DNA of 64,000 nt from Rhodospirillales bacterium RIFCSPLOWO2_02_FULL_58_16 (GTDB lineage Bacteria > Pseudomonadota > Alphaproteobacteria > Rhodospirillales > 2-02-FULL-58-16), in assembly GCA_001830425.1 (NCBI GenBank), contig MIAA01000014.1, positions 13,891 to 77,890 of the forward strand, in the 5' to 3' direction. Position numbers and translations under genes: made by a program. Under the pieces are notes generated by a model. It made no database searches. It was given only the letters and a program-made list of their open reading frames with translations, and had not been told where the DNA came from. This document shows positions 42,980 through 62,753 of the stretch, in pieces; position 1 is the first letter of the stretch; every line of letters begins with the position of its first letter.

Positions 42980-43441
42980 ATGCGCTGTCCGTTTTGCGGT
43001 CATGGAGATACGCAGGTCAAGGATTCACGTCCGACCGAGGAAAACGCAACCATTCGCCGGCGGCGTTTTTGTCCCTCGTGCGGATCGCGGTTTACCACTT
43101 TCGAGCGGGTTCAGCTTCGTGAACTGTCGGTGGTCAAGAAAGACGGCGCCAAAGCGCCGTTCGACCGCGACAAAGTGTTGCGTTCGCTCAAAATCGCCTT
43201 GCGCAAGAGGCCGGTTGAAGACGACCAGATCGAGCGCATCGTCAACGGCATCCAAAGACGTCTGGAAACTCTCGGCGAGAGCGAAATTCCCACCAAGGTC
43301 ATCGGCGAGATGATTATGGAAAACCTCGCCAATATGGATCAGGTGGCCTATGTGCGCTTTGCTTCGGTCTACCGTAACTTCCACGAGGCCAAGGACTTCA
43401 AGGACTTCGTCGGAACGCTGGATGGCTACGAAAAAGACTGA
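42980..43441 (+). CDS. nrdR: transcriptional repressor NrdR
   Basis: 153 aa. MRCPFCGH...VKDSRP...[17 protein letters not shown]. Confidence 0.96.
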
Positions 43442-44537
43442 GAACAGCGACGCCGACAACATGCGCGCCGCTTTGGCGCTGGCGCGTCGGGGCTTGGGAA
43501 ACGCATGGCCCAACCCGGCGGTCGGTTGCGTGCTGGTGCGCGAGGACTTGCAGGGAATGGTGGTCGGGCGGGGCTGGACCCGACCGGGAGGCCGTCCTCA
43601 CGCCGAGGCCGAGGCGCTCCGCCGCGCCGGCGACAAGGCCCGTGGCGCCGCCGCCTACGTCAGTCTGGAGCCGTGCGATCATCATGGGCAAACCCCTCCC
43701 TGTTCCCAGGCACTGATCGACGCCGGCATTGTCCGCGCCGTAATCGCCATAGAAGACCCCGATCCGCGAGTCTCGGGAAAGGGAATCGCCCGCCTGCGGG
43801 CCGCCGGCGTCAAGGTTGTAGAAGGCGTATTGGAAGACGAGGCGCGGCAAGCCAACCTGGGATTTATCCTTAAGATAACAAAGCAACGCCCGCTGTTCGC
43901 CCTCAAACTGGCGACCGACGGCGTTGGGCGCATTCCGGCGCCGGGCGACGCGGAAAAAGGGATCACCGGGTCTCTCGCCCGTCAACGGGGACACCTGCTG
44001 CGCGCTTGCCATGACGGGGTTCTGTTCGGCGTCGGCACCGTGCTGGATGACGATCCTGAATACACTTGCCGTTTGCCGGGGATGAGTGAACACTCGCCTG
44101 TCCGGGTGCTTTTGGACCCGCAATTACGTCTGCCGGTTAATGCCAAGCTGTTGCAAACGCTGGATAAAGCTCCGTTATGGGTGATCGTCGGGACAAAACC
44201 GGCGATCAACCGCGACATCTATCCCGACTCGAAAAATCTGGAATTTATCGTCGCCGGGGAGGTGGATGAGAATGACCGTCCGACGCCGCGCTGGGTGGCA
44301 GGCGAACTTGCCCGTCGCGGCTTGACCCGGATACTGATCGAGGCAGGCCCCAAGGTGACGGCGGCGTTTTTGCGCGATGATCTGGTTGACCGGATTTTTT
44401 GGTTCAAGACGAAGCAGCCGCTGAAAGACGCCGGCGTCGCCGCCTTCGACGCCTTGACCGCCGCCCGGCAATTCGTCAAAACAGCGGTCCACGATCTGGG
44501 CGACGATATTCTCGAAATCTATCAGCGGACGGGTTAG
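43431..44537 (+). CDS. ribD: bifunctional diaminohydroxyphosphoribosylaminopyrimidine deaminase / 5-amino-6-(5-phosphoribosylamino)uracil reductase
   Basis: NPAVGCVLV...HAEAEALR...[13 protein letters not shown]. The start is ambiguous (ATG 43431 or 43470). Confidence 0.92.
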
Positions 44538-44807
44538 TAGAGCGGGTTGCGACCGGATGGACAGCGGAAAATCGGCTCGGCCCAGGGCCGATAAGTCCGC
44601 TTTTGCCGATTCTCCTTGCTCCTCAGTCATTTTGATGGCACAGAATTTCATGAGTTTAATGAGTCCTGACCATGGGCTATAGTGTCTCTGCTCAGAGTTG
44701 CAATGAGGTCCAGGGAACGGCAATGCCCCCGCCATCGCGAATCGAACGGCTGTACAATCAAAAGAAGATGAAGATGACGGGCCGGCAAAACGCACGTCAA
44801 ACTGATT

Positions 44808-46529
44808 ATGGCTGAAACCGTTCGTGTTTATCGGCAGATATCTCTGCCCGGACTCTGCCCTGTCGAGACGGCTGTACAAGCATTGTCCGAAGGCGGCGCT
44901 GAGAAACGGGGAGCGATCTCTACTCGGCGTGAAGTGGTTGACTTCATTCTCGATTTGATCGGCTACACGGCTGACCGTCCTCTTTATGAGAAAAAGCTGC
45001 TCGAACCATCATTCGGCAATGGTGATTTTCTCTTGGCGGCAATCGAAAGGCTAATTGCGGCATACCAATACGGAAGAAAACAGAAACCACTTGAAGTCGC
45101 CTCCCTCATGTCGTGCATATGCAGCGTGGAACTTCATCGCGACACATTTATCGCAACGGGCAATCGCATTGATGCATTACTCGATACAAGCGGATTCAAG
45201 AAAAATGACCGTCGCGCTCTTCTTGACGCATGGCTCACGCATGGAGATTTTCTCCTTACGTCCTTACCCGGCGATTTTGACTATGTAGCAGGCAACCCTC
45301 CATACATTAGACAAGAACTCATCCCCGATGCCTTGATGGCTGAGTACCGGCGCCGTTTCCGGACAATATATGACCGCGCCGATATCTATGTGCCATTCAT
45401 CGAAAAATCGCTTTCGCTGCTTCGCGAAAGAGGTACGCTGGGGTTTATTTGTGCTGATCGCTGGATGAAGAATCGTTATGGGGGGCCATTGCGACGCCTC
45501 GTGGCAGAGAAATATCACCTTAAATTCTTTATCGACATGGTGGATACGCCGGCCTTCCACTCTGACGTGATTGCTTATCCGGCGATCACAATAATTGCAA
45601 ACGAACCGCCGGGACCGACGCGACTGGCCCATCGCCCGGAAATTAATGAAAAGGCGCTTTCCTCGCTTGCCGAGACGATGTTAAACGGCAGTGGAACGCT
45701 GAACGGGACAGTGGAGGTAATAGAGCAGGTCAGCGCCGGGAAAGAACCTTGGATACTCGAATCTTTCGACCGACTTGCCGTCGTGCGACGGCTTGAACGT
45801 GAGTTTCCAACGCTGAAAGAAGCCGGGTGTAAAGTCGGAATTGGCGTCGCCACGGGCGCCGACCAAGTGTTCATCGCGCCCTTTGACGCCCTTGATGTAG
45901 AGTCTGATCGCAAGCTGCCGCTGGTTATGACGCGGGATATTCTATCCGGCGCGGTACAGTGGCGAGGTTTCGGTGTGATAAATCCGTTTAATGACGAGGG
46001 TGGCCTCGTCGCCCTGGATAAGTATCCGAGGCTCTACGCTTATCTCAAAGAGCATGACGAAAAGATCAAGAAGCGCCACGTTTCACAGAAAAACCCGAAC
46101 AATTGGTATAGAACCATTGACCGCATTTATCCGGCATTGGCGAGACGACCAAAATTGTTGATCCCTGACATTAAGGGTGAAGCGCATGTCGTCTATGAAG
46201 ACGGACACTTCTACCCTCACCATAACCTGTACTTCATCACATCCGACGAATGGGACTTACGGGCGTTACAAGCGGTATTGCTGTCGGGCATTGCCAAGTT
46301 GTTTGTGGCCATATACTCGACCAAAATGCGTGGTGGCTACCTGCGCTTCCAGGCGCAGCATCTCCGGCGCATCCGTGTGCCGCTCTGGCAGAACGTTCCC
46401 GGCGACTTAAAGTTCGATCTGGCCGCCGCAGCCGGAAGCGGCGATATCGCAAGCTGCAACGAAGCTACGTTCAGGCTATACCGCATGAGCAAAGCCGAGC
46501 GCACCATTCTTGCCGGCAATGGAAGTTGA
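44808..46529 (+). CDS. N6-adenine DNA methyltransferase, Eco57I/TaqI-like (modification subunit of a type II R-M)
   Basis: 573 aa. Motif [11 protein letters not shown], motif [12 protein letters not shown]. Its 3' end overlaps the following endonuclease gene. Confidence 0.85.
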
Positions 46530-46536
46530 ATCGCCG

Positions 46537-47262
46537 ATGGCGCTTGACCTTGCAAATTACGAAGCTAAAGCGCGAAACGCCGTAAGATTATTCTGGGGCA
46601 AACGAGAAGCCGCCCGGCAGAAGCAGCTCAAATCAGGCAAGGCTGATCAGGGCGAACGATCCGGTGTCACCGGCGGCAAGAATATGAACGGCTTCCCGGA
46701 TTTGGTTGTCGATCTGGTTAAAGCAAACGGATTGGCGGACGCAGCTATTCTACAAGATGGTCGGGTGCTGACGTTGCCGGGATATTTCCGGCCCACAAAA
46801 CTTTGGGATTTGCTGATCCTTCGGAAGGGCTGCTTGATTGCGGCGTTGGAATTCAAGTCCCAGGTCGGACCATCATTCGGCAACAACTTCAACAACCGCG
46901 CCGAGGAAGCCATAGGCACAGCAGTTGATCTTTGGACTGCCTACCGTGAAGGCGCCTTCGGCGAGCAACCTCGCCCGTTTATCGGCTGGTTGATGCTGCT
47001 GGAGGATGCTCCTGCTTCTTGTTCGCCGGTGCGGGATAGGTCACCGCATTTCCCCGTATTTCCCGACTTCCATAACGCCTCCTATGCAGAACGTTATAAT
47101 GCCCTCTGCAAGAAGCTCGTTCAAGAGCAGATGTACACTGCGGCGTGCATTCTTACCTCGCCGCGAAATACGGGCAATTACTCGGAAATGAGCGATATGA
47201 CCGGCCTGAAGACTTTTGTAACGGCATTTGCCGGACACATTGCGGTCGAAGCTGCGCGGTAG
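46537..47262 (+). CDS. XhoI/PaeR7I-family type II restriction endonuclease
   Basis: [21 protein letters not shown]...[14 protein letters not shown]...[25 protein letters not shown] matches my recollection of the PaeR7I/XhoI family. The start may be 46510, 46519 or 46537. Confidence 0.75.
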
Positions 47263-47354
47263 CCTCATAATTAAAGCAAGGAAATTCCCAAATGGACAAC
47301 GAACTACAGTTTGACTTGTCGAATTTAGCTCCAGGTGTTGATTAGGTAAAAACC

Positions 47355-47942
47355 ATGTTCACAGGAATCATCACCGATATCGGTCAAGTCCGATCCGTCC
47401 TGCGCGGCGGCGACGCCCGCATCGAAATAGCAACCTCCTATGACGCCGGGACAATCGCCGTCGGCGCCTCCATCTGTTGTTCGGGGGCCTGCATGACGGT
47501 GATCGACAAGGGCAGGGGCTGGTTCGCCGTCTCCGCCTCGGAAGAAACCCTGTCCTGCACCACCATGGGCGGCTGGGCGCAAGGTAGTAGAATTAATCTT
47601 GAACGATCCCTGAAAGTGGGAGACGAATTAGGCGGCCATATCGTTTCCGGGCATGTTGACGGCGTTGCCCGCCTTGAAAGCGTAACGCCGCAAGGGGATT
47701 CGTTGCGTCTCGTTTTTCAGGCTCCGGAAACCTTGAAATTATTCATCGCCGCCAAAGGGTCAGTCGCCGTTGACGGCGTATCGCTGACCATAAATGAAGT
47801 TGACGGGAGAAACTTCGGCGTCAACATTATCCCCCACACTCGCGAACACACTACGCTCGGCCGTTTGGCGGCGGGCGACAAGGTGAACCTGGAAATCGAC
47901 ATGCTGGCGCGTTATGTTGCGCGTCTTCTTGATAGGAAATAA
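47355..47942 (+). CDS. ribE: riboflavin synthase (alpha chain)
   Basis: 195 aa. MFTGIITDIGQV... and the internal repeat GGHIVSGHVDG. Confidence 0.94.
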   Translation: MFTGIITDIGQVRSVLRGGDARIEIATSYDAGTIAVGASICCSGACMTVIDKGRGWFAVSASEETLSCTTMGGWAQGSRINLERSLKVGDELGGHIVSGHVDGVARLESVTPQGDSLRLVFQAPETLKLFIAAKGSVAVDGVSLTINEVDGRNFGVNIIPHTREHTTLGRLAAGDKVNLEIDMLARYVARLLDRK

Positions 47943-47945
47943 CCG

Positions 47946-49070
47946 GTGCCTCACAGCAAGAATCTGTCCTCGATCGAGGAAATCATCAACGACGCCCGCA
48001 ACGGACGCATGTTCATCCTCATTGACGACGAGGACCGGGAAAACGAAGGCGATCTGGTGGTCCCCGCTCAGATGGCGACGCCTGACGCCGTCAACTTCAT
48101 GGCCAAATACGGGCGCGGCCTGATCTGTCTGGCGCTTACGTCAAGGCGGGTGGAAGAACTGGAACTGCCGCTGATGGCGCGGAAAAACGCCTCGCGCCAC
48201 GACACCGCCTTCACCGTCTCGATTGAGGCGCGTGAGGGAGTAAGCACAGGCATATCGGCATCGGACAGGGCGCGGACCATCGCCGTCGCCATTGACCCGA
48301 CAATCGACAAAGGCGATATCGTCAGCCCCGGTCACGTCTTTCCGCTGGCGGCGCGGGAAGGCGGCGTTCTGGTTCGCGCCGGCCATACCGAAGCGGCGGT
48401 GGATATTGCCCGTCTGGCCGGGCTGAACCCATCGGGCGTGATTTGCGAGATCATGAACGACGACGGCGCCATGTCGCGGACGCCGGAGCTGATCGAGTTC
48501 GCCAAAACCCACGGCATCAGGATCGCCACCATCTCCGATCTTATCGCCTACCGCCTGCGCCATGACCGGATTGTCGAGCGCGTCATGGAAACGACTTTCG
48601 ACAGCCTTTACGGCGGCGAGTTCCAGATGTTCGTCTACATTAACCGCATCGCCTATGCCGAGCATGTCGCCCTGGTGAAAGGCGACATCTCATCGTGCGG
48701 GGGGCCGGTTCCGGTGCGGATGCATTCCCTTAACGTGCTTGAAGACGTTCTCGGCGACAAAAGCGCGGGCAGGGAGGAAGAGCTTCATCAGGCGATGCGG
48801 ATGATCGGCGATTTAGGGCGCGGCATAGCGGTTCTTATCCGCGAACCGTACCGCTCCGGTCTTTCCGACCGCGTGCGCTCGAAACTTGATGACGGGGGAA
48901 AACGACCGGAACAATTGCGTGATTACGGCGTCGGCGCCCAGATTCTGCTTGATCTCGGCATCAGCGAAATGATCTTGCTATCCAATACCAAGCACACCAT
49001 CATCGGCCTTGAAGGATACGGCCTGACCGTGACCGAGCAACGTCCCATAAAAGGCCCGCTGAATGTCTGA
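47946..49070 (+). CDS. ribB: 3,4-dihydroxy-2-butanone-4-phosphate synthase fused to a GTP cyclohydrolase II-like domain
   Basis: 374 aa, GTG start. DDEDRENEGDLV...GHTEAAVDIARLAG. Confidence 0.92.
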   Translation: MPHSKNLSSIEEIINDARNGRMFILIDDEDRENEGDLVVPAQMATPDAVNFMAKYGRGLICLALTSRRVEELELPLMARKNASRHDTAFTVSIEAREGVSTGISASDRARTIAVAIDPTIDKGDIVSPGHVFPLAAREGGVLVRAGHTEAAVDIARLAGLNPSGVICEIMNDDGAMSRTPELIEFAKTHGIRIATISDLIAYRLRHDRIVERVMETTFDSLYGGEFQMFVYINRIAYAEHVALVKGDISSCGGPVPVRMHSLNVLEDVLGDKSAGREEELHQAMRMIGDLGRGIAVLIREPYRSGLSDRVRSKLDDGGKRPEQLRDYGVGAQILLDLGISEMILLSNTKHTIIGLEGYGLTVTEQRPIKGPLNV

Positions 49071-49521
49071 AAAGCCGCGAGTCCTCATCATTGAGGCAAG
49101 ATTTTACGAGGACATCGCCGATGAATTGGCGAAGGGCGCCGCAGCCGTTCTGGATGAAGCCGGAATAGCCTATGAGCGCCACGCCGTTCCCGGCGTTTTC
49201 GAGACTCCGGCGGCGGTCCATTTCGCCATCCGTTCGATGGAGATGGGAGCGGTGAAATATTCCGGCGTCATCGTCCTCGGCTGTGTCATTCGCGGCGAGA
49301 CCGATCACTACGAATACATCAGCAGCAGCGCCGTTCAGGCGTTGATGAACCTGACCGTCTCCTACAGCATCGCGCTGGGGTTCGGCGTGCTTACCTGCGA
49401 AAACTACGAACAGGCCCGGGAACGCGCCGCCGTTGACCGCAAAAACATCGGCGCCAGGGCCGCTATGACATGTCTCAGGATGATGGACCTCAAAAAAGAT
49501 TTTCATCTGGTGATTCGATGA
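49063..49521 (+). CDS. ribH: 6,7-dimethyl-8-ribityllumazine synthase
   Basis: 152 aa. VPGVFE...GCVIRGETDHYEY. Confidence 0.93.
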   Translation: MSEKPRVLIIEARFYEDIADELAKGAAAVLDEAGIAYERHAVPGVFETPAAVHFAIRSMEMGAVKYSGVIVLGCVIRGETDHYEYISSSAVQALMNLTVSYSIALGFGVLTCENYEQARERAAVDRKNIGARAAMTCLRMMDLKKDFHLVIR

Positions 49522-50051
49522 ACGCCGAAACCGGGACAGCAACCAAAAAACGCAAGGCGGGACCGCGCCGTCGCACCGCCCGCCTGTCCGCCGTGCAAGC
49601 CCTCTATGAGATGGAGGTAAGCGGCGCGGCGGTCGATTCGGTGCTTGAGGAGTTCCTCAAAAACCGCTGGAAAGAAGCGGAGAGGGAGGGAGGCGCCGAA
49701 AACGCCTTGGCCAAACCAAGTCCGGCGCTGCTTTCCGAGCTTGTTCACAGCGTGGCGGAACGCGGGCCGGAACTGGACGAGGCGATCAAGCCCGCTCTTT
49801 CCGGGGATTTATGCATTGAGCGGATAGAACCTCTGCTGAAGGTAATCATGAGGGCCGCCGTCCACGAGCTGATGAACCCATGTCATGATGTCTCGGCCGC
49901 CGTCATCATCAGCGAGTATGTTGACATCACTCACGCCTTTTTTTCCGGTAATGAAATAAATCTGGTCAACGGCGTGCTCGGCAATCTGGCCCGCCGGTTG
50001 CGTCCCGGAGAAAAGGAAGCTAAAAGTGGGGAGAAGCAGGAAAAGCTCTGA
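49518..50051 (+). CDS. nusB: transcription antitermination factor NusB
   Basis: ATGA overlap with ribH. RRTARLSAVQALYEMEV. Confidence 0.9.
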   Translation: MNAETGTATKKRKAGPRRRTARLSAVQALYEMEVSGAAVDSVLEEFLKNRWKEAEREGGAENALAKPSPALLSELVHSVAERGPELDEAIKPALSGDLCIERIEPLLKVIMRAAVHELMNPCHDVSAAVIISEYVDITHAFFSGNEINLVNGVLGNLARRLRPGEKEAKSGEKQEKL

Positions 50052-51027
50052 ATTCGGGATTATCTCCCGTTTCTTCGCCCCCCTGGCCGAGGGCGAGCCG
50101 GGAGCTTTCGGGCTTACCGACGACGCCGCGCTGATCCCCGCCGGACCGGGTCGTCTGGTCATCACCACCGACGCCATAGTCGCCGGTATCCATTTCCCGG
50201 AAGCGACGGCGGCGGATTTGATCGCCGCCAAGATGCTGGGGGTGAATCTCTCCGATATGGCGGCCATGGGCGCAACGCCGGAGGTCTATACGCTTTCGTT
50301 GGCCCTGTCCGAAGACGTTGACGACGATTGGCTGGAGTTGTTTTCGTCCTCCCTGGCGGCGGAACAGGAGATTTACCGGATAACCTTGATCGGCGGCGAC
50401 ACGGTGGCGACGACCGGGCCGCTTACCTTCGCCGTAAGCATGGTGGGCAGGGTGGAGGAGGGGAGAGAATTGCGGCGTTCGGGCGCTCGTCCCGGCGACA
50501 TTATTTATGTTTCGGGAGCAATCGGCGACGCCGCCCTCGGCCTGAAAGTAATTAACGGCGAACTTCCGTGGTTGGCCGACGGCTTTGGCGAAGACCTGGC
50601 GGATCGCTACTACAGACCGCAGCCGCGAGTGGAATTGGGACGGCGGCTTGCCGGACTCGCTCATGCCGCCATCGACGTTTCGGACGGGTTGGCGGCTGAC
50701 CTCAGACATGTATGCGCGGCGTCGGGCGTTGCCGCTACTTTAGCGGCGCATAAAGTCCCTTTATCGCCGGCGGGCCGGGCGGCGGTTGAACACGCCCCGG
50801 AATTGATTTCAAGCGTCCTCGGCGGGGGAGACGATTACGAACTCCTCTTTACCGCTCCCCCCGAAGCCGCCGATGCGCTTGCTCGTTTGTCGCGGGACCT
50901 GAACCTGCCCCTGACCGCCGTTGGAAGCATTGCCGGAATGACCGGGGAAACGCACGGAGTCACAATCATTGATAAAAACGGCGATGAAATCAAACTGACC
51001 GCCGACGGCTACCTGCATTTTGCGTGA
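50026..51027 (+). CDS. thiL: thiamine-monophosphate kinase
   Basis: 333 aa, GTG start. EFGIISRFF...TTDAIVAGIHF...GGDT...DVSDGL. Confidence 0.9.
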   Translation: MGRSRKSSEFGIISRFFAPLAEGEPGAFGLTDDAALIPAGPGRLVITTDAIVAGIHFPEATAADLIAAKMLGVNLSDMAAMGATPEVYTLSLALSEDVDDDWLELFSSSLAAEQEIYRITLIGGDTVATTGPLTFAVSMVGRVEEGRELRRSGARPGDIIYVSGAIGDAALGLKVINGELPWLADGFGEDLADRYYRPQPRVELGRRLAGLAHAAIDVSDGLAADLRHVCAASGVAATLAAHKVPLSPAGRAAVEHAPELISSVLGGGDDYELLFTAPPEAADALARLSRDLNLPLTAVGSIAGMTGETHGVTIIDKNGDEIKLTADGYLHFA

Positions 51028-51483: not shown

Positions 51484-52587
51484 ATGAAAACCATATCAAT
51501 ATTTAACAATAAGGGCGGTGTTGGTAAAACAACGCTGACTTTTCACTTGGCACATGCTTTAGCTGAAATGAAGCACAAAACGCTTGTCGTCGATTTAGAT
51601 CCCCAATGTAACCTAACTATTCTCGGTATGGATGAAGAAGAACTTCATGAAATATGGTCTGTTGAGGATTCATTTATTGATGATTTCCAAGGGGCAAGAG
51701 AAAAATGTACGCCCGTTGATTTTGATAAGATAATTTCTGAACCTAGATCGGTTCACTTCCTTTTAAAGCCAGCTGAGGATGGTGCTGCAGAAATAGGAAA
51801 GTTGCCACCACCATATAAATTAGCAACTAATTTGGACCTTATCCCAGGTCGTCTCACCATGCATTTATATGAAGATAAGATTGCTGGTCGTTGGAGCGAC
51901 GTATATCAGGGAGACCCCCTCGCGATCCGTACTGTTACCAAACCACGAGAACTTGCCGAGTCTTATGCCAAACAGCATGGGTATGAATATATTATTATGG
52001 ATACATCGCCAAGCCTAGGCACTTTGAACAAGGTAATTATTTCTACAGCAGACGGCTTTCTCATTCCATGTATGCCCGACATGTTTTCTCTATATGGGGT
52101 TCAGAACATTGGGAATGCATTAAGTGTCTGGAAAAAACAATTTGATACAATTTACCATTTACTTTCCTCTGAGAAACGTAAATCCTTTCCGGCCAATTAT
52201 GTGAGACTTCTTGGTTTTACTATTTATAATGCTAAAAAATATTCTGGTAAAGAAAAGCCGTGGAATCTCGCAACAGCGCATTACAATTACGCAAAAAAGA
52301 TTCCTGATGCGATCAATCAATTTATACCATCAGGTGTTAGGGATAGGTTGGAAGAAAAAGCGTTATCGTCCCCTGTAGGCGAAACCGCAATTATGCACAC
52401 TCACAATACCCTCCCCAGTATGGCACAACGCTATCATTTGCCAATGTGGAAAGTCCCATCATGTGATAGTTTGGATAATACCGATGTCTCCACGATAAAA
52501 GGAAACAGAGGTATTTATGAGGATACAAAAAGTAAATACGCCGTGTTTGCGACGGCTCTTTTAACGCGCCTCAAAACTTTAGAATAG
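51484..52587 (+). CDS. ParA/MinD-superfamily (deviant Walker A) ATPase, enlarged (367 aa)
   Basis: MKTISIFNNKGGVGKTTLTFHLA...VVDLDPQCNLT...IIMDTSPSLG. RBS AGGTGA. The DNA is strongly AT-rich. No ParB gene or parS-like repeats are adjacent. Confidence 0.85.
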   Translation: MKTISIFNNKGGVGKTTLTFHLAHALAEMKHKTLVVDLDPQCNLTILGMDEEELHEIWSVEDSFIDDFQGAREKCTPVDFDKIISEPRSVHFLLKPAEDGAAEIGKLPPPYKLATNLDLIPGRLTMHLYEDKIAGRWSDVYQGDPLAIRTVTKPRELAESYAKQHGYEYIIMDTSPSLGTLNKVIISTADGFLIPCMPDMFSLYGVQNIGNALSVWKKQFDTIYHLLSSEKRKSFPANYVRLLGFTIYNAKKYSGKEKPWNLATAHYNYAKKIPDAINQFIPSGVRDRLEEKALSSPVGETAIMHTHNTLPSMAQRYHLPMWKVPSCDSLDNTDVSTIKGNRGIYEDTKSKYAVFATALLTRLKTLE

Positions 52588-52599
52588 GGCGTATGCCCA

Positions 52600-53307
52600 A
52601 TGAAACAGGAAGATTCGAAAGCGATTAGTGCCGTTGCTGCTTTTATTGAGAAGAGGCACGAATTCCAGATTTTCATGGATGGCATCAGCCAGTGGTTTTT
52701 AACTCATCCAAAACTACGACATCCAGATTTTCCCTTTGTTCATTCGGTTAAGGCGCGTCTCAAAAACAATGAACACTTAAAGGAAAAAATTATCCGCAAA
52801 TCTAAGGAGAATATCGAAATTACCAAGGATAATATTTTCGATGAGATTACGGATTTAGCTGGTGTACGGGTTCTTCACTTATATCAAGATCAATTTCGAA
52901 CAATCCATGAAGAATTTCTCGTTAAGGTAAATAAACTGCATGACTGGTATCTACCTGAACATCCAAAGGCGTACACTTGGGATCCAGAGTCGATACAATT
53001 TTTTGAGAACCAAAATATAAAGGTTGAGATTAAGGAAAGTTTCTACACGAGCGTTCATTACCTCGTGAAACCGAGAGAAGATTCGCTCATATGCTGTGAA
53101 ATTCAGGTGCGTACATTGTTTGAAGAAATTTGGGGCGAAATTGATCATGTCCTGAACTACCCTCGACAATCACTCAACTTATCATGCCGTGAACAGCTGT
53201 TGGTTTTGGCAAAACTTGTGGGTGCGGGAAGCCGCCTTGCTGATTCTATTTTCAGAAGCTCTACGGAAAACAACAATTCAAAACATTGGGGCGACCCCGC
53301 CTCTTGA
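52600..53307 (+). CDS. RelA/SpoT-domain protein (synthetase-only, small-alarmone-synthetase/toxSAS-like nucleotide pyrophosphokinase)
   Basis: 235 aa, 12 nt after the ParA-like stop. Motifs: SVKARLKNNEHLKEKIIRK, DLAGVRVLHLY, YTSVHYLV, EIQVRTLFEEIWGEIDH. No HD hydrolase domain. Confidence 0.85.
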   Translation: MKQEDSKAISAVAAFIEKRHEFQIFMDGISQWFLTHPKLRHPDFPFVHSVKARLKNNEHLKEKIIRKSKENIEITKDNIFDEITDLAGVRVLHLYQDQFRTIHEEFLVKVNKLHDWYLPEHPKAYTWDPESIQFFENQNIKVEIKESFYTSVHYLVKPREDSLICCEIQVRTLFEEIWGEIDHVLNYPRQSLNLSCREQLLVLAKLVGAGSRLADSIFRSSTENNNSKHWGDPAS

Positions 53308-54158: not shown

Positions 54159-55004
54159 ATGAACCGTAAACGTTTTTCGCTCGTAAAAACCATCGGATTC
54201 AAAAGCTGTCTGGATGTCGTTGACATCGGGGCCAATCCCATAGACGGCGAGGCTCCTTACAAGCGGCTTCTTGATTCGGGACATGCGCTGGTCGTCGGCT
54301 TTGAGCCGAATCCTGACGCCATGAAGATACTGAACGAAAAGAAGGGCCGGAACGAAACCTATCTGCCTTATGCCGTATTTGACGGAAACGTACATCAGTT
54401 CCGTGTTTGCCAATCGCCCGGAATGTCGTCGTTGCTGGAGCCTGACCGGGATATTCTCCGGTATTTCCACGGATTTCCCGATTGGGGGACCGTAAATGAA
54501 CGTCGTGAAATTAAAACCGTGCGCCTTGACGACATCAAAGAAATAAAGAGCATTGATTACCTGAAAATTGATATTCAAGGCGGAGAACTGGAGGTTTTCA
54601 GGAACGGCGTCGGGCAATTGGCGAATTGTCTGGTTATCCATGCCGAGGTCGAATTCCTTCCCATGTACGAAAACCAGCCGCTTTTCTCGGAGGTTGAGAT
54701 ATTCCTTCGCGGACAAGGATTTCTATTCCACCGCTTCGCGCCGTTGGCAAGTCGGGCGGTTCAACCGATGCTCGTAGATAACGATATCCATAAGGGATTG
54801 GGCCAAATATTCTGGGCGGACGCTGTTTTTATCCGTGATTTCACCAAGCTGGACGCGCTAAGTCCGTTACGGCTCAAAAAAATGGCGCTAATTCTCCATG
54901 ATATCTACGGCTCCTGCGATCTGGCGCTTCGCTGCCTCATGGCTTGCGACGGCAAGATGCAAAACGGACTTGCGGAAAAATATATGAAAGCTTTGTCCGA
55001 TTAA
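54159..55004 (+). CDS. FkbM-family methyltransferase
   Basis: 281 aa. VVDIGANPIDG...IDYLKIDIQGGELEVF. Confidence 0.8.
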   Translation: MNRKRFSLVKTIGFKSCLDVVDIGANPIDGEAPYKRLLDSGHALVVGFEPNPDAMKILNEKKGRNETYLPYAVFDGNVHQFRVCQSPGMSSLLEPDRDILRYFHGFPDWGTVNERREIKTVRLDDIKEIKSIDYLKIDIQGGELEVFRNGVGQLANCLVIHAEVEFLPMYENQPLFSEVEIFLRGQGFLFHRFAPLASRAVQPMLVDNDIHKGLGQIFWADAVFIRDFTKLDALSPLRLKKMALILHDIYGSCDLALRCLMACDGKMQNGLAEKYMKALSD

Positions 55005-57379: not shown

Positions 57380-58276
57380 ATGAGAAAGATGCAGGCCCAG
57401 GCCGCGATATCAATGAGGCGTTTTGTCGCCGTCGTGGCGGTTGCTTCGGCGTTTATCCACGTTGCCTCCGGCGCACGGGCCGGCTCGGCGCCGGAAAGAA
57501 GCTCAATCGTCAGTTCCATACACAAGCTCTTATCCGACCGGGGCGGCGAAGAGGCCGTAAGGCTGAACAGGGAAACCGCCAGATCATACTATCTGGAGGG
57601 ATTGAATCAGCGCAAAGGAACGGACGGCTCCGTCCTGTGCATCAATGACGGCAAGGATTTGCTGGTCCCGGAAACCTCCGTTCCCGTTACTTCGTACAAG
57701 GGCATTCCCATTCTGGGCAGCCCGTACCCGGCAAGCGCCCCCCGCAAGGAGGCGGCCAACATCAACGACGCCTACCTGAAGGAGACCATAAAGGCCTTGA
57801 AGGTCATCGAAACCCATACCCCGAAAATATTTGAAGACATATCGGCGGTCTTCAAAAATTCCGGCGGATACATAACTTTTCAGAATTTTTGCACCAGTGA
57901 CGGCCTGACCCTGGCGAGATTCAACGCCCTGTCCGACGGCAAGAACAAGTTCTTCACGGTAATGCTGTCGTCGTCGCTGATTTTTTTTCCGGAATTTTTC
58001 AATGAATTCGATATCGCCTCGGCGCTGGTCCATGAGGCCTATGGCCATGCCTGGGAATACTACGAAACAGGATCGACCAACGAGGACAAGGCGTTCACCG
58101 CCCAGATGAGGTTCGCCGAATTGGTCGGCGACGACAAATTTCTGGACACCCGCCACACTTCCGAGAACCTGAAGTACAAGATCAAAATGTCTTTGACCAC
58201 ATCCGGCAATTATGTGAACAAGCCCGACAAGTCCCTCAACCAATCAAGAAACTACTCGGGCAACGGCGCTCGCTAA
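57380..58276 (+). CDS. hypothetical exported protein with an HEAYGH (HExxxH) motif
   Basis: 298 aa. Signal-like N-terminus (RRFVAVVAVASAFIHVASGARAG). ALVHEAYGHAWEYYE could be a metal-binding site. No family recognised. Confidence 0.55.
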   Translation: MRKMQAQAAISMRRFVAVVAVASAFIHVASGARAGSAPERSSIVSSIHKLLSDRGGEEAVRLNRETARSYYLEGLNQRKGTDGSVLCINDGKDLLVPETSVPVTSYKGIPILGSPYPASAPRKEAANINDAYLKETIKALKVIETHTPKIFEDISAVFKNSGGYITFQNFCTSDGLTLARFNALSDGKNKFFTVMLSSSLIFFPEFFNEFDIASALVHEAYGHAWEYYETGSTNEDKAFTAQMRFAELVGDDKFLDTRHTSENLKYKIKMSLTTSGNYVNKPDKSLNQSRNYSGNGAR

Positions 58277-58869
58277 TGGGCAACGGCGCCGCTTTCAACG
58301 GCCATGCCGTCTTTATCGACGACCCGAAGATCAAGGTTCCAGCCGGCTTTTGACGTTACCTCCACCAGCAGATGGCAAAAGGCGTGAAACAGCTTTTCAT
58401 CGAGAAAAAGATGAAACGATTTTCCGTTCTGCAAATTAAACACCAGCCCCAGCCTGCCGTCCTTATGCATGCCGCCGGATACTCCGATAATAAGATTGAT
58501 CGTCGCATCGTCGTGCGCGACTTCGGCGGCGGGGCTGTTTTCACGCGGCGGCGAAGGGGTTTGCCGGGCGGGGCCGGGGGCATCGGCAGGGGGAGCCGCC
58601 GTTTTCAGCAATTCCTCCTTGAATGATTCGGTCGAGAACGCGCTCTTTTCCAGAGCATCCTGATGGCGCATGGAGAGAACGGCTTTCCTGATCTGGCCGT
58701 CCAGGTGTTTTCTTATGTCGGGGAAATTTTCGAGGTTTACGACCAGCGGCTTCCATATAATCCGGACAAAACGACGGGTCATCCAGAAACGATGTTTTCC
58801 CTGCGCGGTGAAAACGATCAACAGCACCCGATCATCGATCTGCGAATAAACCATCGAGATCTTCTGCAT
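58273..58869 (-). CDS. hypothetical protein with two similar halves separated by a Pro/Ala-rich linker
   Basis: The ORF extends to TTG 58983. I prefer ATG 58869 (MQKISMVYS...). The halves are RVLLIVFTAQGKHRFWMTRRFVRIIWKPLV and RLGLVFNLQNGKSFHLFLDEKLFHAFCHLLV. Confidence 0.45.
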   Translation of the reverse strand: MQKISMVYSQIDDRVLLIVFTAQGKHRFWMTRRFVRIIWKPLVVNLENFPDIRKHLDGQIRKAVLSMRHQDALEKSAFSTESFKEELLKTAAPPADAPGPARQTPSPPRENSPAAEVAHDDATINLIIGVSGGMHKDGRLGLVFNLQNGKSFHLFLDEKLFHAFCHLLVEVTSKAGWNLDLRVVDKDGMAVESGAVAH

Positions 58870-59085
58870 GGCGATCTGCTGTTGTTTCGGGTGTAACTGT
58901 GTCAAGGCGATCCCTTTACGTTGCCGGTCCCAAGCTTCTCCTGCGCCGCGTCTCCATAGTATCAAAACATCATAAAAGGTCAAAAAAGCTTATGCCGCGA
59001 AAGACATTATCGACTTGTTCGGCAACCGTAAACGACCTACGATCTTTTCTACCTTCTTGATGATGCCGATGTAGTGGAGGCGCGG

Positions 59086-59292
59086 ATGAAATGGCTGCTG
59101 GTAATCGTCCTTGCTTCATCGGCGGGAGATATCGGGCACGAGCCGGTCTTGTTCAAAACCCGATCCGAGTGCGTTGCCGCCGCCGAGGCGTTTGTAGGGA
59201 AATATCCCGCTTTTGAATTGCGTGATAATCAAACGGTGGAAGCCCCCGTTATTCGCTCGTATGTAGAATGCGTCCCTGAAACTTCCGACTAG
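59086..59292 (+). CDS. hypothetical small exported protein
   Basis: MKWLLVIVLASSAG..., 68 aa, two Cys. GGAGG lies upstream of ATG 59086. Confidence 0.4.
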   Translation: MKWLLVIVLASSAGDIGHEPVLFKTRSECVAAAEAFVGKYPAFELRDNQTVEAPVIRSYVECVPETSD

Positions 59293-59295
59293 ATC

Positions 59296-59492
59296 GCATC
59301 AGGATTGATTGGAATCGCCGCTGTGGGCCACGCCTAACCGTCTTTGCGAGGATTGCAAGAAGCGAAGCGACGAAGCAAGACGAAGCAATCCAGAGAGCAT
59401 CCACCACCACTGGATTGCTTCCCGCGTCGCTGATGCTCGCGGTCGCAATGACGCCGATATGCACCGCAGGTGATCCTGATCAATCCTGACGC
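59296..59492. repeat. ~200-bp imperfect palindrome / candidate structured RNA or MITE-like element
   Basis: Outer arms are GCATCAGGATTGAT (59296-59309) and ATCAATCCTGACGC (59479-59492). The inner perfect stem is GAAGCAATCC (59382-59391) / GGATTGCTTC (59412-59421) with a 20-nt loop. A further pairing is GCGACG/CGTCGC. Confidence 0.55.
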
Positions 59493-59592
59493 GCTCTAAG
59501 TTCCGTGTATGAGAAGCAGGATTTTACCTGCTATGCTATTGTCAGGTTGTTCGGCATTTTGTCATCAATTGATGCAATGGAGTGCGACCGCG

Positions 59593-60414
59593 ATGGGGAC
59601 GTTGGTTGATGACAAGGACGGGCTTCCGGCTGCGGAAGTCGGAGAATGGGCCAAACAAAAGCACGATTACCTGTGCCGCTACCTGAACATCTCTCGTTAT
59701 ACCCGCACCATGTTCCTCAAAGGCCATTCAAAGTCGGCGACGTTCATCGACTTGTTCTGTGGCCCCGGCAGGGCCATGGTAAAAGAGACCGGCGAGTGGA
59801 TCGACGGTAGCGCCGTCGCCGCCTGGAAGGTCAGCCAGAAAGGTAGTGCGCCGTTTTCGGATATCTACGTCGCCGACATCGACGATGAACGGCGTGCGGC
59901 CACGGTCGAGCGTCTTAAGCGGCTCAAGGCACCTGTACGGGAACTCAAGGGATCAGCCGTCGATGCCGCAGCCGAAGTGGCGGGAACCATCAATCCTTAT
60001 GGCCTACATTTCGCCTTCATTGATCCATTCAGCCTGGGTGCTCTGGATTTCAAGATCATCCAATCGCTCGCGCTCTTGAAACGCATCGACATGCTGATCC
60101 ATGTGAACGCCATGGACCTTCAGCGAAACTGGAAAATTAATCTTGGGCCGGACGGGTCAGCCTTTGACATCTTTGCACCGGGATGGCGCAAGAAGGTTGA
60201 CCTTGCCCGCCCGCCAAAAGAAATCCGTCGCCAGTTGATTGAATATTGGAGGGACTTGGTCGCCGACCTCGGCAAACGTCCATCAACCCGTATGAAACTG
60301 ATTACGGGAAGCAACGAACAGCGCCTGTATTGGCTACTGCTCGCGGCAGAAAACGATCTGGCGCACAAGTTCTGGAATGTCGCCACAGACAACGGCCAGG
60401 GATCGTTGTTCTAA
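59593..60414 (+). CDS. tcmP: three-Cys-motif partner protein TcmP-like
   Basis: LPAAEVGEWAKQKHDYLCRYL...ATFIDLFCGPGR... matches my recollection of TIGR04474. The ORF could start as early as 59509. Confidence 0.65.
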   Translation: MGTLVDDKDGLPAAEVGEWAKQKHDYLCRYLNISRYTRTMFLKGHSKSATFIDLFCGPGRAMVKETGEWIDGSAVAAWKVSQKGSAPFSDIYVADIDDERRAATVERLKRLKAPVRELKGSAVDAAAEVAGTINPYGLHFAFIDPFSLGALDFKIIQSLALLKRIDMLIHVNAMDLQRNWKINLGPDGSAFDIFAPGWRKKVDLARPPKEIRRQLIEYWRDLVADLGKRPSTRMKLITGSNEQRLYWLLLAAENDLAHKFWNVATDNGQGSLF

Positions 60415-60418
60415 CCGG

Positions 60419-61165
60419 TCAACAAGCGGAGTGAGTCTCCGGATAGGCGTTCCACGTCCGTCCCTTGAATACCCGGCCATTCGCCTTTTTGTGTCGCTTG
60501 ACGCCATCGACTCCCCAGCCGCCCCACTGCTTGAAAAAGAAGGCGACGCCGGCCTTGTCGGCTTGGCGCTTGACGTTTTCGACCCAAGCTTCCTCCATCG
60601 GTCGGGCCTTGTGGCCGGATTCTCCGCCGACGATCACCCAATGCATGCCGGCAAGATCGAAATAGCCGAGGTCTTCCAACTGCGGCTCGATTGAAAGAAA
60701 TCTGACCTTTGCATCGACCCGGCGCAAATGATTGATGCGCGGTAGCCCATAGGCGCGGTCTTCCACCGATACGCCCAACCAGACGTTCGGCGGACAACGG
60801 CGATCAGCAAAATACTCAGGTAGCCGCTCCGCTCGCTTGGTCAGAATCTGGTAGGTGTGCTGGGGGGTCTGGCCGATCACCGCGAACACTTCATCCAGAA
60901 ACGCATCCGGGATATCGCAGTGGAACAGGTCGCTCATCGAATTAACGAAATAGACTGTCGGCTTGCGGCGCGCCAATGGCTGAGCTATGCGCTTAGGGTG
61001 CAGCGCGAGATTAAAACCGTTTTCATAACCGGCGGCCCCCATGACATGAAGACGGCGCGCCATTGTTTCAGCGTAGCAGTGTTTACAACCGGGAGAAATC
61101 TTCGTGCAGCCGGTCGTCGGGTTCCACGTCTGTTCCGTCCATTCGATCTTCGAGTTCGCGCTCAC
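60419..61165 (-). CDS. DUF5131 / phage Gp37-Gp68 family three-Cys protein
   Basis: 248 aa. IEWTEQTWNPTTGCTKISPGCKHCYAE...VNSMSDLFH...VGGESG. It lies 17 nt downstream of rpe on the same strand. Confidence 0.8.
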   Translation of the reverse strand: MSANSKIEWTEQTWNPTTGCTKISPGCKHCYAETMARRLHVMGAAGYENGFNLALHPKRIAQPLARRKPTVYFVNSMSDLFHCDIPDAFLDEVFAVIGQTPQHTYQILTKRAERLPEYFADRRCPPNVWLGVSVEDRAYGLPRINHLRRVDAKVRFLSIEPQLEDLGYFDLAGMHWVIVGGESGHKARPMEEAWVENVKRQADKAGVAFFFKQWGGWGVDGVKRHKKANGRVFKGRTWNAYPETHSAC

Positions 61166-61182
61166 ATGCTTTCTCCGCCCGG

Positions 61183-61833
61183 CTACTTCAGCGCGTTGCG
61201 CAGTTCGCCGATGGTCGCCTTGTAGTCGTCGCCGCGAAAGACGGCGCTGCCGGCGACCACCGCGTCGGCGCCGGCGTCAACCACCGACTTGATGTTCTTG
61301 GCGTTGATGCCGCCGTCAACCATCAAATCAATGTTGCGCCGCCCGATCATCGAGCGGATACGTTGGATTTTCGCTAATTGGGACTCGATGAAACTCTGGC
61401 CGCCGAAGCCGGGGTTGACCGACATCACCAGGATCAGGTCCAGCCTGTCGATGACGTACTCGATCACTGATTCCGGCGTCGAGGGGTTGAGGGATACTCC
61501 CGCCTTCTTGCCGATCGATTTGATCAACTGGAGGCTGCGGTCTAAATGCACGTCGGCCTCGGCGTGGACGGTGATGATGTCGGCGCCGGCGTCGGCATAG
61601 CTCTGAATGAACGGCTGGGCCGGGTTGATCATCAAATGGACATCGAAAACCTTGTCGGTGCAATGCCTTATGCACTTGATCACCGGCGGGCCGAAGGTCA
61701 GGTTGGGAACGAAATGGCCGTCCATGACGTCGATGTGGATATAGTCGCACCCGGCAGCATCGACGGCGCGCACTTCCTCGCCCAGCCGGGAAAAATCCGA
61801 TGACAGAATGGAAGGGGCGATCTTGACGTGCAT
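61183..61833 (-). CDS. rpe: ribulose-phosphate 3-epimerase
   Basis: 216 aa. [10 protein letters not shown]...[16 protein letters not shown]...[10 protein letters not shown]. Confidence 0.96.
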
Positions 61834-61853
61834 AGGTTCCTCCGGGATGGAAT

Positions 61854-62753
61854 TTAAGCCTTGAGCCTTTTGCTCTCTTTCAGCAAAAGGCGGAGAATGG
61901 GGGTCAGGATCAACTCCATGGCCAGGCCCATCTTGCCGGCGGGAACGACGATGGAGTTGCGGCGCGACATCCAGGAATTATGCAGCATGCGCAGCAGGTA
62001 GGGGAAGTCCACCTCGAACTTCTCGGGATCGCTGAAGCGGATCACCACCAGACTCTCGTCGGCGGTGGGGATGTCGCGGGCGATGATCGGGTCGGAAGTA
62101 TCGACCACAGGCACCCGCTGGAAGTTGATGTCGCTGTGCTTGAACTGGGGCATGATGTAGTGAACGTAGTCGTGCATGCGCCTCAGTATCGTTTCCATCA
62201 CCGCTTCTTCCGAGTAGCCGCGCTGGCTGGTGTCGCGGTGGATTTTCTGTATCCATTCCAGATTGATTACCGGCACCACGCCGATCTTCAGGTCCACATA
62301 GCGGGATATGTCGATATTTTCGTTCTTCACCGTTATGCAGCCGTGCAGACCCTCGTAGAACAGCAGGTCGGTGCCCGCCGCGAACTCCTCCCACGGGGTG
62401 AACTGACCGGAACCGAGACCGAGGGCGGCGTAAGGCTCGGCCTCCTCGGCGTTGTGCAGGTACAGGCGGCGCTTGCCTTTCCCGGTCTCGCCGTAGGTTT
62501 TGAACAGGGTTTCAAGTTCCTTGAACAGGTTGGCCTCGGGGCCGAAGTGGCTGAAATTGGGGTTACCCTTGCCCGCCGCCTCCGCCACCGCCTGTTTCAT
62601 GGCGACCCGGTCATAGCGGTGGAAGCTGTCGCCCTCGATCACCACCGGAGTCAGGCCCTCGCGGCGGAACATATGCTCGAAGGCCACCTTGACCGTGCTG
62701 GTGCCGGCGCCCGACGAGCCGGTAACGGCGATGACGGGATGCTTGATCGACAA
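61854..62753 (-). CDS. prk: phosphoribulokinase
   Basis: 299 aa. [17 protein letters not shown]...[11 protein letters not shown]. Confidence 0.95.

Follow-up and report, generated by a model that had tools for sequence, protein, structure and literature searches.

Directly behind the Calvin-cycle operon cbbM-prk-rpe, in a 64,000-nt stretch of the genome of Rhodospirillales bacterium RIFCSPLOWO2_02_FULL_58_16 (contig MIAA01000014.1; hereafter the window), lie two convergent genes, one encoding a TcmP protein and the other a protein of the DUF5131 (phage Gp37/Gp68) family. On balance, we interpret this pair as a self-contained, horizontally transferred module of 1.57 kb that carries out an S-adenosylmethionine (SAM)-dependent modification of nucleic acid in the conflict between phages and their hosts. 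We hold with great confidence that it is a mobile module of the phage or defence type without a tie to CO2 fixation; judging from sequence comparisons, its position behind rpe appears to be incidental, the result of horizontal transfer. Our literature search found no paper on the biochemistry of TcmP or DUF5131, in agreement with a preceding sequence-only reading of this locus, which described the biochemical role of the pair as not established.

The gene pair and its limits

The family assignments proposed in the sequence-only reading were confirmed by profile searches. The plus-strand protein passed the TcmP model TIGR04474 with 166 bits (cutoff 53, E 1.5e-48, model positions 1-260 of 263) and the minus-strand protein passed the DUF5131 model PF07505 with 358.6 bits (threshold 28.9, E 2e-107, model positions 1-243 of 243); the latter also matches PHROG 2045. 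Both open reading frames (ORFs) exist as the convergent pair described earlier, with stops 4 nt apart: the TAA of TcmP occupies 60412-60414, and the stop of DUF5131, TCA on the plus strand and TGA on the minus strand, 60419-60421. The two motifs picked out by eye are also present, the GCxxxSxGCxxCYA signature as G19-C20-x3-S24-x-G26-C27-x2-C30-Y-A in DUF5131 and FIDLFCGPGR in TcmP at 59743-59772. DUF5131 starts with the GTG at 61165-61163, which lies 17 nt past the rpe stop TAG (61185-61183), as previously read, and has a GGAG Shine-Dalgarno sequence 7 nt upstream. What had to be corrected was the start of TcmP, since 59509 (which would give 301 aa) is 84 nt too far upstream. The homologues have 273-275 aa and an N-terminus of the form MG(T/A)L, gene callers give a protein of 273 aa on a contig identical to the window, and cross-genome DNA homology detected by blastn begins on this side at 59588-59593. 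For these reasons, we place the start at the ATG at 59593, which yields a protein of 273 aa.

A genome scan with one genome per species returned 80 loci with a TcmP relative. Because the search patterns were built from close homologues, this sample leans towards the clade of the window itself. DUF5131 was directly adjacent to TcmP in 70 of these loci (52 convergent and 18 co-directional, the latter mostly in more distant relatives), was located farther off in six, and was missing from four, two of which lie at a contig end. The hosts include Alpha-, Beta- and Gammaproteobacteria, Methylacidimicrobium, and metagenome-assembled genomes (MAGs) of the Cytophagales and of a cyanobacterium. Adjacency at this frequency is far beyond chance and substantiates the recurrent partnership named in the sequence-only reading. 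All 34 IMG/VR viral contigs with TcmP carried the convergent pair, and in ~13 of them it was found at the very end of the predicted provirus. The identities of TcmP and DUF5131 co-vary across loci (Spearman 0.68), and as far as these comparisons can tell the two genes are inherited together. The families are large, with more than 1,800 TcmP clusters and at least 8,000 DUF5131 clusters.

The convergent layout, earlier taken for an oddity of this locus, is in fact the norm of the family, being shared by those 52 genome loci, by every one of the viral contigs and by the pairs of three of three isolated phages described below. Once the reading frames had been extended to their stops, TcmP and DUF5131 were seen to share 4 nt in 41 of the 52 convergent loci, where a single palindromic tetranucleotide, CTAG or TTAA, supplies the stop of each gene (e.g., around 8822 in locus L007). 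Exceptions to this shared stop are the window itself (gap of 4) and its closest relatives (gaps of 0-5 nt), among them loci L001 and L002 (gap of 0) and Rhodospirillum centenum (gap of 5).

The limits of the module were sharply defined by DNA homology. Comparison of 58500-62000 with the 80 loci by blastn gave a single colinear block running from 59588/59593 to 61153/61169, with nothing beyond it. Within this block, R. centenum was 79% identical and a Magnetospirillum MAG 76%, whilst the values for beta- and gammaproteobacteria and for Methylacidimicrobium were 66-68%. The gene pair of R. centenum is 80-87% identical to that of the window. The limits of homology thus delineate the transferable unit as 1.57 kb from start codon to start codon, without conserved flanks.

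The sequence-only reading had considered the pair as welded to the Calvin-cycle operon, a link that turned out to be idiosyncratic. In tblastn searches with the rpe, prk and cbbM of the window, neither cbbM nor prk was found near the pair in any of the 80 genome loci, nor was either found in the 34 viral loci or in the phages examined; one locus (L059) has an unrelated rpe 3 kb from the pair. The order cbbM-prk-rpe-DUF5131 was present only on metagenome contigs identical to the window. On such contigs cbbM encodes 458 aa, and a LysR-type gene lies divergently in front of the operon. When metagenomes were scanned with rpe for a sister genome without the insertion, 80 further loci came up, none of which had the same cbbM-prk-rpe operon, the best rpe being 77-79% identical. 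The GC content of the pair is slightly below that of the cbb genes. The suggestion that DUF5131 is transcribed as the tail of cbbM-prk-rpe is plausible as far as geometry goes (17-nt gap, Shine-Dalgarno sequence, no terminator-like site); our promoter and terminator scans around the pair and in the 17-nt gap, which do not settle transcription, gave nothing above shuffle expectation.

Many of the beta- and gammaproteobacterial loci (L007-L027 and L076; e.g., L012:9588-9920, minus strand) have in the place of rpe a gene of ~110-130 aa that ends 13-16 nt upstream of DUF5131, often with a phage lysozyme gene next to it. At L088:11597-11998, the 133-aa gene in this slot is of the HTH_3/HTH_31 type. 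Such a helix-turn-helix (HTH) gene may represent a third, regulatory component of the module that is replaced by rpe in the window; it looks as though the module arrived there without its usual HTH gene and is now fed by rpe.

On the other side, a nested palindrome lies between a 72-aa ORF and the TcmP start (Table 1). It has 30-nt arms at 80% complementarity with an inner perfect 12-nt pair, and a fold energy of -93.9 kcal/mol (z -6.6); the identical metagenome contigs end in it or at it. It occurs once in the window and is not conserved beside the module elsewhere. We rejected it as a known RNA, since it has no Rfam match, and as an integron attC site, given its lack of conservation next to the module and the absence of RYYYAAC/GTTRRRY cores on inspection by eye. 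It may mark the left edge of the inserted DNA or be an element resembling a miniature inverted-repeat transposable element.

Table 1. Coordinates of the TcmP/DUF5131 module and of adjoining features in the window.
Feature	Position	Strand	Remarks
TcmP gene	59593..60414	+	273 aa + TAA stop; predicted class I SAM-methyltransferase fold (TIGR04474, homologue lengths, AF2/Foldseek)
In-frame extension upstream of the TcmP ORF	59509..59592	+	Probably untranslated; missing from all homologues
TcmP motif I, F51-I-D53-L-F-C-G57-P-G59-R60	59743..59772	+	Predicted SAM-binding glycine loop after strand beta-1
TcmP motif IV-like, F-A-F-I-D144-P145-F	60010..60030	+	Directly after strand beta-4
Spacer CCGG between the convergent stops	60415..60418	.	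4 nt; from sequence
DUF5131 / phage Gp37-Gp68 family gene	60419..61165	-	248 aa, GTG start; PF07505; radical-SAM-superfamily-like
Three-Cys motif C20-x6-C27-x2-C30 (GCTKISPGCKHCYA)	61076..61108	-	Putative [4Fe-4S] site
rpe-DUF5131 spacer with GGAG Shine-Dalgarno sequence	61166..61182	-	17 nt; from sequence
Nested palindrome	59287..59502	.	~215 nt; just outside the TcmP start; not in the conserved module
rpe	61183..61833	-	Last gene of cbbM-prk-rpe; PF00834, 272.7 bits; abuts the module, not part of it
prk	61854-62753	-	Same strand as rpe
cbbM	62777 to beyond 64000	-	Extends past the window end

Further features were noted in the window and on a matching contig. A type II restriction-modification (RM) system at 44808-47262 (context 43350-51027) is inserted co-directionally in the riboflavin operon, between ribD and ribE-ribBA-ribH-nusB-thiL; its methyltransferase is of the Eco57I/TaqI type (PADLOC MTase_II, 820 bits) and its endonuclease belongs to the XhoI family (368 bits). 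The presence of this system there suggests that the placing of conflict modules in core operons is a habit of this genome. At 51484-53307 there is a low-GC island (0.39-0.43 versus ~0.6 nearby) with genes for a ParA-like AAA_31 ATPase and for a RelA/SpoT-domain protein of 235 aa, which may form a small alarmone-synthetase toxin or defence pair; the island is followed by an FkbM-type methyltransferase at 54159-55004. Finally, a ParD-like antitoxin gene and a MazE/PemK toxin-antitoxin (TA) pair were seen at 350-830 and 5352-5899 of contig L081, which is identical to the window; they lie among trp and moaC genes, just upstream of cbbR-cbbM.

Fold and conserved residues of the two proteins

The AlphaFold2 (AF2) model of TcmP was obtained with high scores (pLDDT 92, pTM 0.90, 29 homologues) and shows the secondary-structure order of class I methyltransferases, with an N-terminal helix in front. 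A Foldseek search of this model against the PDB gave 241 chains at E <= 1e-3, and all 50 listed matches were class I SAM methyltransferases. Escherichia coli RlmJ was the best match (E 7e-7, TM 0.55), followed by Trm1, RlmO and cap methyltransferases. Among viral structures (BFVD), nearly all named matches were methyltransferases or capping enzymes, mostly RNA cap and RNA methyltransferases. Judging from the model, which has the Rossmann-like architecture of seven strands, TcmP has in all likelihood a SAM-binding methyltransferase fold, and the hint in this direction that the sequence-only reading had taken from motif I thus holds at the level of the fold.

When the three phage TcmPs, which are 18-21% identical, were included in the alignment, only K23, Y30, D53, G57, D144, R178, W198 and L222 were invariant. 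In the model, the motif I loop follows strand 49-53, D95 follows strand 90-94 as the acidic residue ending beta-2, D144 follows strand 138-143 and occupies the motif IV position (D144-P145 being invariant in the close clade), and K23 sits in the N-terminal helix. RlmJ, the methyltransferase of m6A2030 in 23S rRNA, provides a reference for these positions: catalysis depends on both K18, from motif X at its N-terminus, and D164, from motif IV (DPPY), W195 stacks on the target base, and its active site resembles that of DNA m6A methyltransferases (PMC3814359) such as T4 Dam and M.TaqI. With K23 corresponding to K18, D144 to D164 and W198 to W195, and with D53/G57 in the glycine loop, the TcmP invariants in the predicted structure parallel the catalytic set of RlmJ by position and form the residue constellation of amino-group methyltransferases. 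TcmP departs from RlmJ in having no significant sequence similarity to it, in reading DP[F/Y] and not DPPY, in having a predicted short hairpin in place of the helical subdomain, and in its link to a radical-SAM-like partner, RlmJ being an enzyme that acts by itself.

DUF5131 is the conserved half of the pair. Its homologues in the close clade are 74-88% identical across phyla, and C20, C27 and C30 are invariant in the bacterial and phage members. The family is listed in RadicalSAM.org as radical SAM subgroup Megacluster-5-2, beside spore photoproduct lyase (PMC9477430), with which DUF5131 shares the three cysteines in the N-terminal region and, in its low-confidence model, an alternating beta/alpha core; at 248 aa it is much smaller, and its prediction as a radical SAM protein comes from that listing and a weak fold match. 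A related sequence is TIGR04471 (radical SAM mobile pair protein A), also one half of a mobile two-gene pair, although DUF5131 is not a member, with 96 bits (E 2e-27) against a cutoff of 355. From the family assignment and the weak fold matches, DUF5131 is most likely a slowly evolving enzyme, predicted to bind a [4Fe-4S] cluster, and on the same basis we consider it fairly likely that it carries out radical SAM chemistry. For the 'radical-SAM-like partner' of the sequence-only reading, the subgroup listing and the weak matches to spore photoproduct lyase and lipoyl synthase speak in favour; the CX3CX2C motif is absent. We also considered C124 as a fourth cluster ligand or as a hydrogen donor like that of spore photoproduct lyase (SPL), and rejected it in any universal role, as it is invariant in the close clade and not in the phage members. 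Matches to TIGRFAM, Pfam and PADLOC models revealed no nuclease domain in either protein, and the window has no third gene conserved with the two, so that the pair does not qualify as an RM system.

Prophages, isolated phages and defence islands

As regards the NCBIfam/TIGRFAMs TcmP/DUF5131 pair, the two genes of the window are plain members: they pass both curated cutoffs, are adjacent and carry the three-Cys motif. They differ from the family in lying behind a Calvin-cycle operon and not in a prophage or island, and in the 4-nt gap between the stops instead of the usual 4-nt overlap. The family usually resides at prophage ends, in the part of temperate phage genomes that controls lysogeny, and in defence islands. 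Its typical surroundings are illustrated by R. centenum, where prophage tail genes lie opposite DUF5131 and TcmP comes after a block of SNF2, AIPR, N6/N4-methyltransferase, RhuM and ResIII genes, and by Thiohalobacter, where SNF2, MZB, PLD and Vsr genes precede TcmP, while those preceding DUF5131 are an HTH gene, a phage lysozyme gene and tail genes. A domain scan of the 52 convergent loci, covering the two nearest crude ORF calls per side, gave the same picture. On the DUF5131 side we found XRE-type HTH_3/HTH_31 domains (15), phage lysozymes (7) and integrases (2), and on the TcmP side DUF499/HmaC (7) and CBASS cyclases with 2TM/SLATT effectors (3-4), in addition to TIR, HEPN_Swt1, ResIII, DEAD and SNF2 domains.

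The pair is already catalogued as the phage-defence candidates PDC-M41 and PDC-M30 of PADLOC. DUF5131 matches the models PDC-M30B and PDC-M41B with 364 and 361 bits, and TcmP matches PDC-M41A with 42 bits (E 2e-11) and PDC-M30A with 21 bits. Both candidates belong to the 145 defined by 'guilt-by-embedding' (Payne et al., bioRxiv 10.1101/2024.01.29.577857). The two genes of the window match both component models and are adjacent, and in other genomes the pair has Hma, CBASS and restriction neighbours; unlike the catalogued candidates, the pair of the window is neither embedded in nor next to a recognisable defence system. In Sinorhizobium meliloti, the TcmP gene SMa2243 and the gene of the defence helicase Hna are listed together as a single putative transcription unit (PMC12445080).

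DUF5131 was found in 181 GenBank phage records, including phages of Mycobacterium, Gordonia, Burkholderia, cyanobacteria and a haloarchaeon. A tblastn search of 50,697 phage records with TcmP was empty, which would have suggested that phages lack this partner. We discarded this conclusion as an artefact of sensitivity, since neighbours of the phage DUF5131 genes pass TIGR04474. The TcmP partners identified in this way are those of three phages, Fairfaxidum, BaxterFox and Yong-M2-251 (109, 175 and 149 bits, respectively), the check having covered a minority of the 181 records. The DUF5131 gene of Gordonia phage Fairfaxidum, gp42, converges on gp43 (TcmP, annotated as 'methyltransferase') with an 11-nt overlap, and the gene immediately upstream of gp43 is that of the immunity repressor, gp44. 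The TcmP of Gordonia phage BaxterFox, gp42, is likewise directly downstream of the repressor, gp43, and faces and overlaps an unannotated DUF5131 gene. Synechococcus phage Yong-M2-251 has DUF5131 convergent with a TcmP ORF (full length 305 aa) with a 46-nt overlap. A different partner was observed in Gordonia phage Bakery (L205, 1921-4475), whose DUF5131 protein gp64 (324 aa, with insertions) is encoded directly after the C5-type DNA methyltransferase gp63, with a 1-nt overlap; no TcmP is present at this locus, which belongs to an early region with an HTH gene, a replication initiator and RuvC. DUF5131 is, accordingly, repeatedly tied to proteins of the methyltransferase fold, and its tail-to-tail overlap with TcmP is kept across very distant hosts.

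The two partners differ in their rate of change. Between the window and the three phages (L206, L207 and L208), that is, for the same pairs of genomes, DUF5131 is 49-53% identical and TcmP 18-21%. By this measure, TcmP is the fast-evolving and DUF5131 the slowly evolving member of the pair. The TcmP of BaxterFox has degenerate motifs (YIDLMSGQPD and FLDQQG) and, to judge by them, may be catalytically inactive. In passing, we noted two annotation errors. The DUF5131 gene of BaxterFox (L208, KU963263.1, 3001-3744) was missed and small reverse-strand ORFs were annotated in its place, and the TcmP of Yong-M2-251 (L207, OM868082.1, 3699-4616) is annotated 83 codons too short, cutting off its motif I (YIDAFAGSGS).

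Lambda and Gordonia phage CarolAnn keep exclusion genes just downstream of the repressor (PMC6426606), and the TcmP genes of the Gordonia phages occupy the same post-repressor slot. This is an analogy of layout with lambda rexAB and CarolAnn 43/44; we rejected the CarolAnn genes as instances of the present pair, since they are RexAB-like and unrelated. The likeness to convergent type II RM and TA pairs is also one of layout, with a compact mobile module in which a gene of the methyltransferase fold faces one for a potentially harmful enzyme. In contrast to these systems, the pair includes neither a nuclease nor a membrane protein, and it is not homologous to RexAB or CarolAnn 43/44.

Proposed mechanism and competing explanations

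We propose that TcmP and DUF5131 would act together on nucleic acid, most likely DNA. DNA is preferred as the target because the neighbouring genes are DNA-centred, a C5 DNA methyltransferase is the alternative neighbour of DUF5131, and its nearest radical SAM relatives act on DNA. The fast-evolving TcmP would be the target-selecting subunit, which recognises and flips out a base and perhaps methylates it, and the conserved DUF5131 would then perform radical chemistry on that base. The resulting covalent mark or lesion would serve conflicts between phage and host or between phages: with it, a prophage would mark itself or practise exclusion, or DNA entering the cell would be attacked. As overlapping stops leave no room for a terminator, each transcript should run antisense into the other gene, and this mutual transcriptional interference could balance the potentially harmful enzyme against its partner, as in convergent RM and TA pairs; the 18 co-directional loci mean that such control would not be obligatory. 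In the window, rpe would replace the upstream HTH gene, with DUF5131 being read through from the cbb operon. For the joint modification of nucleic acid by the two proteins, we judge the probabilities for and against to be evenly matched. That its pay-off is anti-phage, rather than addiction or repair, we suggest only tentatively, our confidence in it being somewhat lower.

Several observations weigh against this proposal. TcmP had no Pfam match at E 0.01, and phmmer and profile searches against PDB sequences were both empty. Its hhalign comparison with RlmJ covered 32 columns only (E 0.016, probability 2.8%) and was limited to the motif I region, pairing ATFIDLFCGPGRAMV..KETGEWIDGSA of TcmP with PFLYLDTHAGAGRYQ..AERTGEYLEGIA of RlmJ, so that YLDTHAGAGRY, motif I of RlmJ, is aligned with that of TcmP. 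We therefore rejected TcmP as a member of a methyltransferase family at the sequence level, and the methyltransferase claim is carried by the predicted fold and the conserved residues. Since its motif IV is one proline short of (D/N)PP(Y/F/W), we treat TcmP as amino-methyltransferase-like or as a base-flipping protein and not as a member of that family. As for DUF5131, the cysteines are spaced CX6CX2C and not in the canonical radical SAM form CX3CX2C; non-canonical spacings do occur within the radical SAM superfamily. Its model is of low confidence (pLDDT 68, with the cysteine loop below 50), and the best PDB matches of this model, spore photoproduct lyase (E 4.8e-3) and lipoyl synthase (E 7.3e-3), are weak, with TM ~0.4. 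The case for conflict is also open to objections. Residence in defence islands is guilt by association only, and the pair also has the look of two conserved genes at the end of a family of prophages, beside a variable cargo spot, in which position defence genes would be expected as neighbours even if the pair itself is not a defence system. The ORFs adjoining TcmP in the window (57380-59292) had no Pfam or PADLOC match, nor did they match any defence or phage model, and many of the 181 phage records may lack the TcmP partner. Lastly, both the suggested antisense control and the probable read-through of cbb transcripts into DUF5131 are deduced from geometry only.

One competing explanation is a functional extension of the Calvin-cycle operon, in which the pair, as two SAM-dependent enzymes, would be co-regulated with cbbM-prk-rpe and act on a metabolite, RuBisCO or PRK. 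The short gap after rpe with its Shine-Dalgarno sequence and no terminator would fit it, as would the identical arrangement on independent metagenome contigs of the same organism. However, cbbM and prk are missing from all genome and viral loci and from the phages examined, homology stops exactly at the two start codons, the GC content of the pair is slightly below that of the cbb genes, and an RM system is likewise embedded in the riboflavin operon of the same window, all of which makes this explanation highly improbable. A selfish toxin-antidote module without a direct anti-phage role, in which nucleic acid would be damaged by DUF5131 and the genome protected or marked against it by TcmP, with the convergent overlap setting their ratio and stabilising the carrier prophage or island, would account for the tail-to-tail overlap with shared stops conserved across phyla, the compactness of the module without flanking mobility sequences, the placement of TcmP in immunity-repressor operons and the location of the pair at prophage ends. 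We consider it unlikely; it overlaps with the proposal made above, from which it differs only in the biological pay-off, the co-directional loci show that antisense control is not obligatory, and DUF5131 occurs in many phages, in Bakery beside a C5-type DNA methyltransferase and not TcmP.

The two remaining alternatives concern the target and the nature of the reaction. TcmP could be an RlmJ-like methyltransferase of rRNA or tRNA to which DUF5131 adds a modification of the RlmN/Cfr or MiaB type, re-tuning or disabling translation during infection. The best structural matches of TcmP (the rRNA m6A methyltransferase RlmJ, then Trm1, RlmO and cap methyltransferases), the predominance of RNA cap and RNA methyltransferases among the viral matches, and the automatic name 'RNA methyltransferase' given to DUF5131 in some phage records point in this direction. 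Nevertheless, the resemblance of the RlmJ active site to that of DNA m6A methyltransferases (PMC3814359) means that the fold match does not separate RNA from DNA, while the neighbours (RM, Hma, Vsr, DNA methyltransferase and replication genes) are DNA-centred and the nearest radical SAM neighbours act on DNA, so that we regard RNA as a decidedly unlikely target. To a repair of phage or prophage DNA, in which lesions of the UV or dehydration type in tightly packed phage DNA would be reversed by DUF5131 as an SPL-like radical SAM enzyme, with TcmP as a catalytically altered methyltransferase-fold protein that both finds and flips the damaged base, we likewise assign a rather small probability. 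It is consistent with spore photoproduct lyase being the best PDB fold match of DUF5131, with the presence of DUF5131 in phages whose habitats are exposed to light or to drying, such as cyanophages, Microcystis phages, the haloarchaeal virus PhiCh1 and soil actinophages, and with the departure of TcmP motif IV from active amino-methyltransferases. On the other hand, that fold match is weak (E 5e-3, TM ~0.4) and comes from a poor model, and C124, the sole candidate for an SPL-like hydrogen donor, is not kept in phage members. Repair would also not lead one to expect a fast-evolving partner (18-21% for TcmP versus 49-53% for DUF5131), the convergent overlap, the repressor-operon position or a C5 DNA methyltransferase as a substitute neighbour.

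With the module read, as we propose, as one of nucleic-acid modification in phage-host conflict, the window adds one further copy of a known, named and catalogued gene pair. New here are the RlmJ-like fold assignment with its invariant residues, the contrast in rate between the partners, the shared-stop overlap and the repressor-linked position in temperate phages. The family is noteworthy in that it is widespread, that DUF5131 is ~50% identical between actinophages, cyanophages and proteobacteria, and that the pair sits where temperate phages keep exclusion genes. K23, D53, G57, D144, R178 and W198 of TcmP and C20, C27 and C30 of DUF5131 are offered for mutation, and the conserved overlapping-stop layout predicts antisense control. 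In its most specific form, the pair would be a two-enzyme machine that installs or removes a new radical-SAM-dependent DNA base modification, with TcmP flipping the base, DUF5131 as the catalyst and a shared-stop antisense circuit setting their ratio. We put this forward as a doubtful possibility; if true, temperate phages would possess an epigenetic or immune module of a new kind, and in the present organism the modification would come to depend on autotrophic growth, DUF5131 having been captured by the cbb operon under the control of CbbR. Should the pair make a new DNA modification or block phages, it would add a new enzyme chemistry to the repertoire of phage-host conflict.

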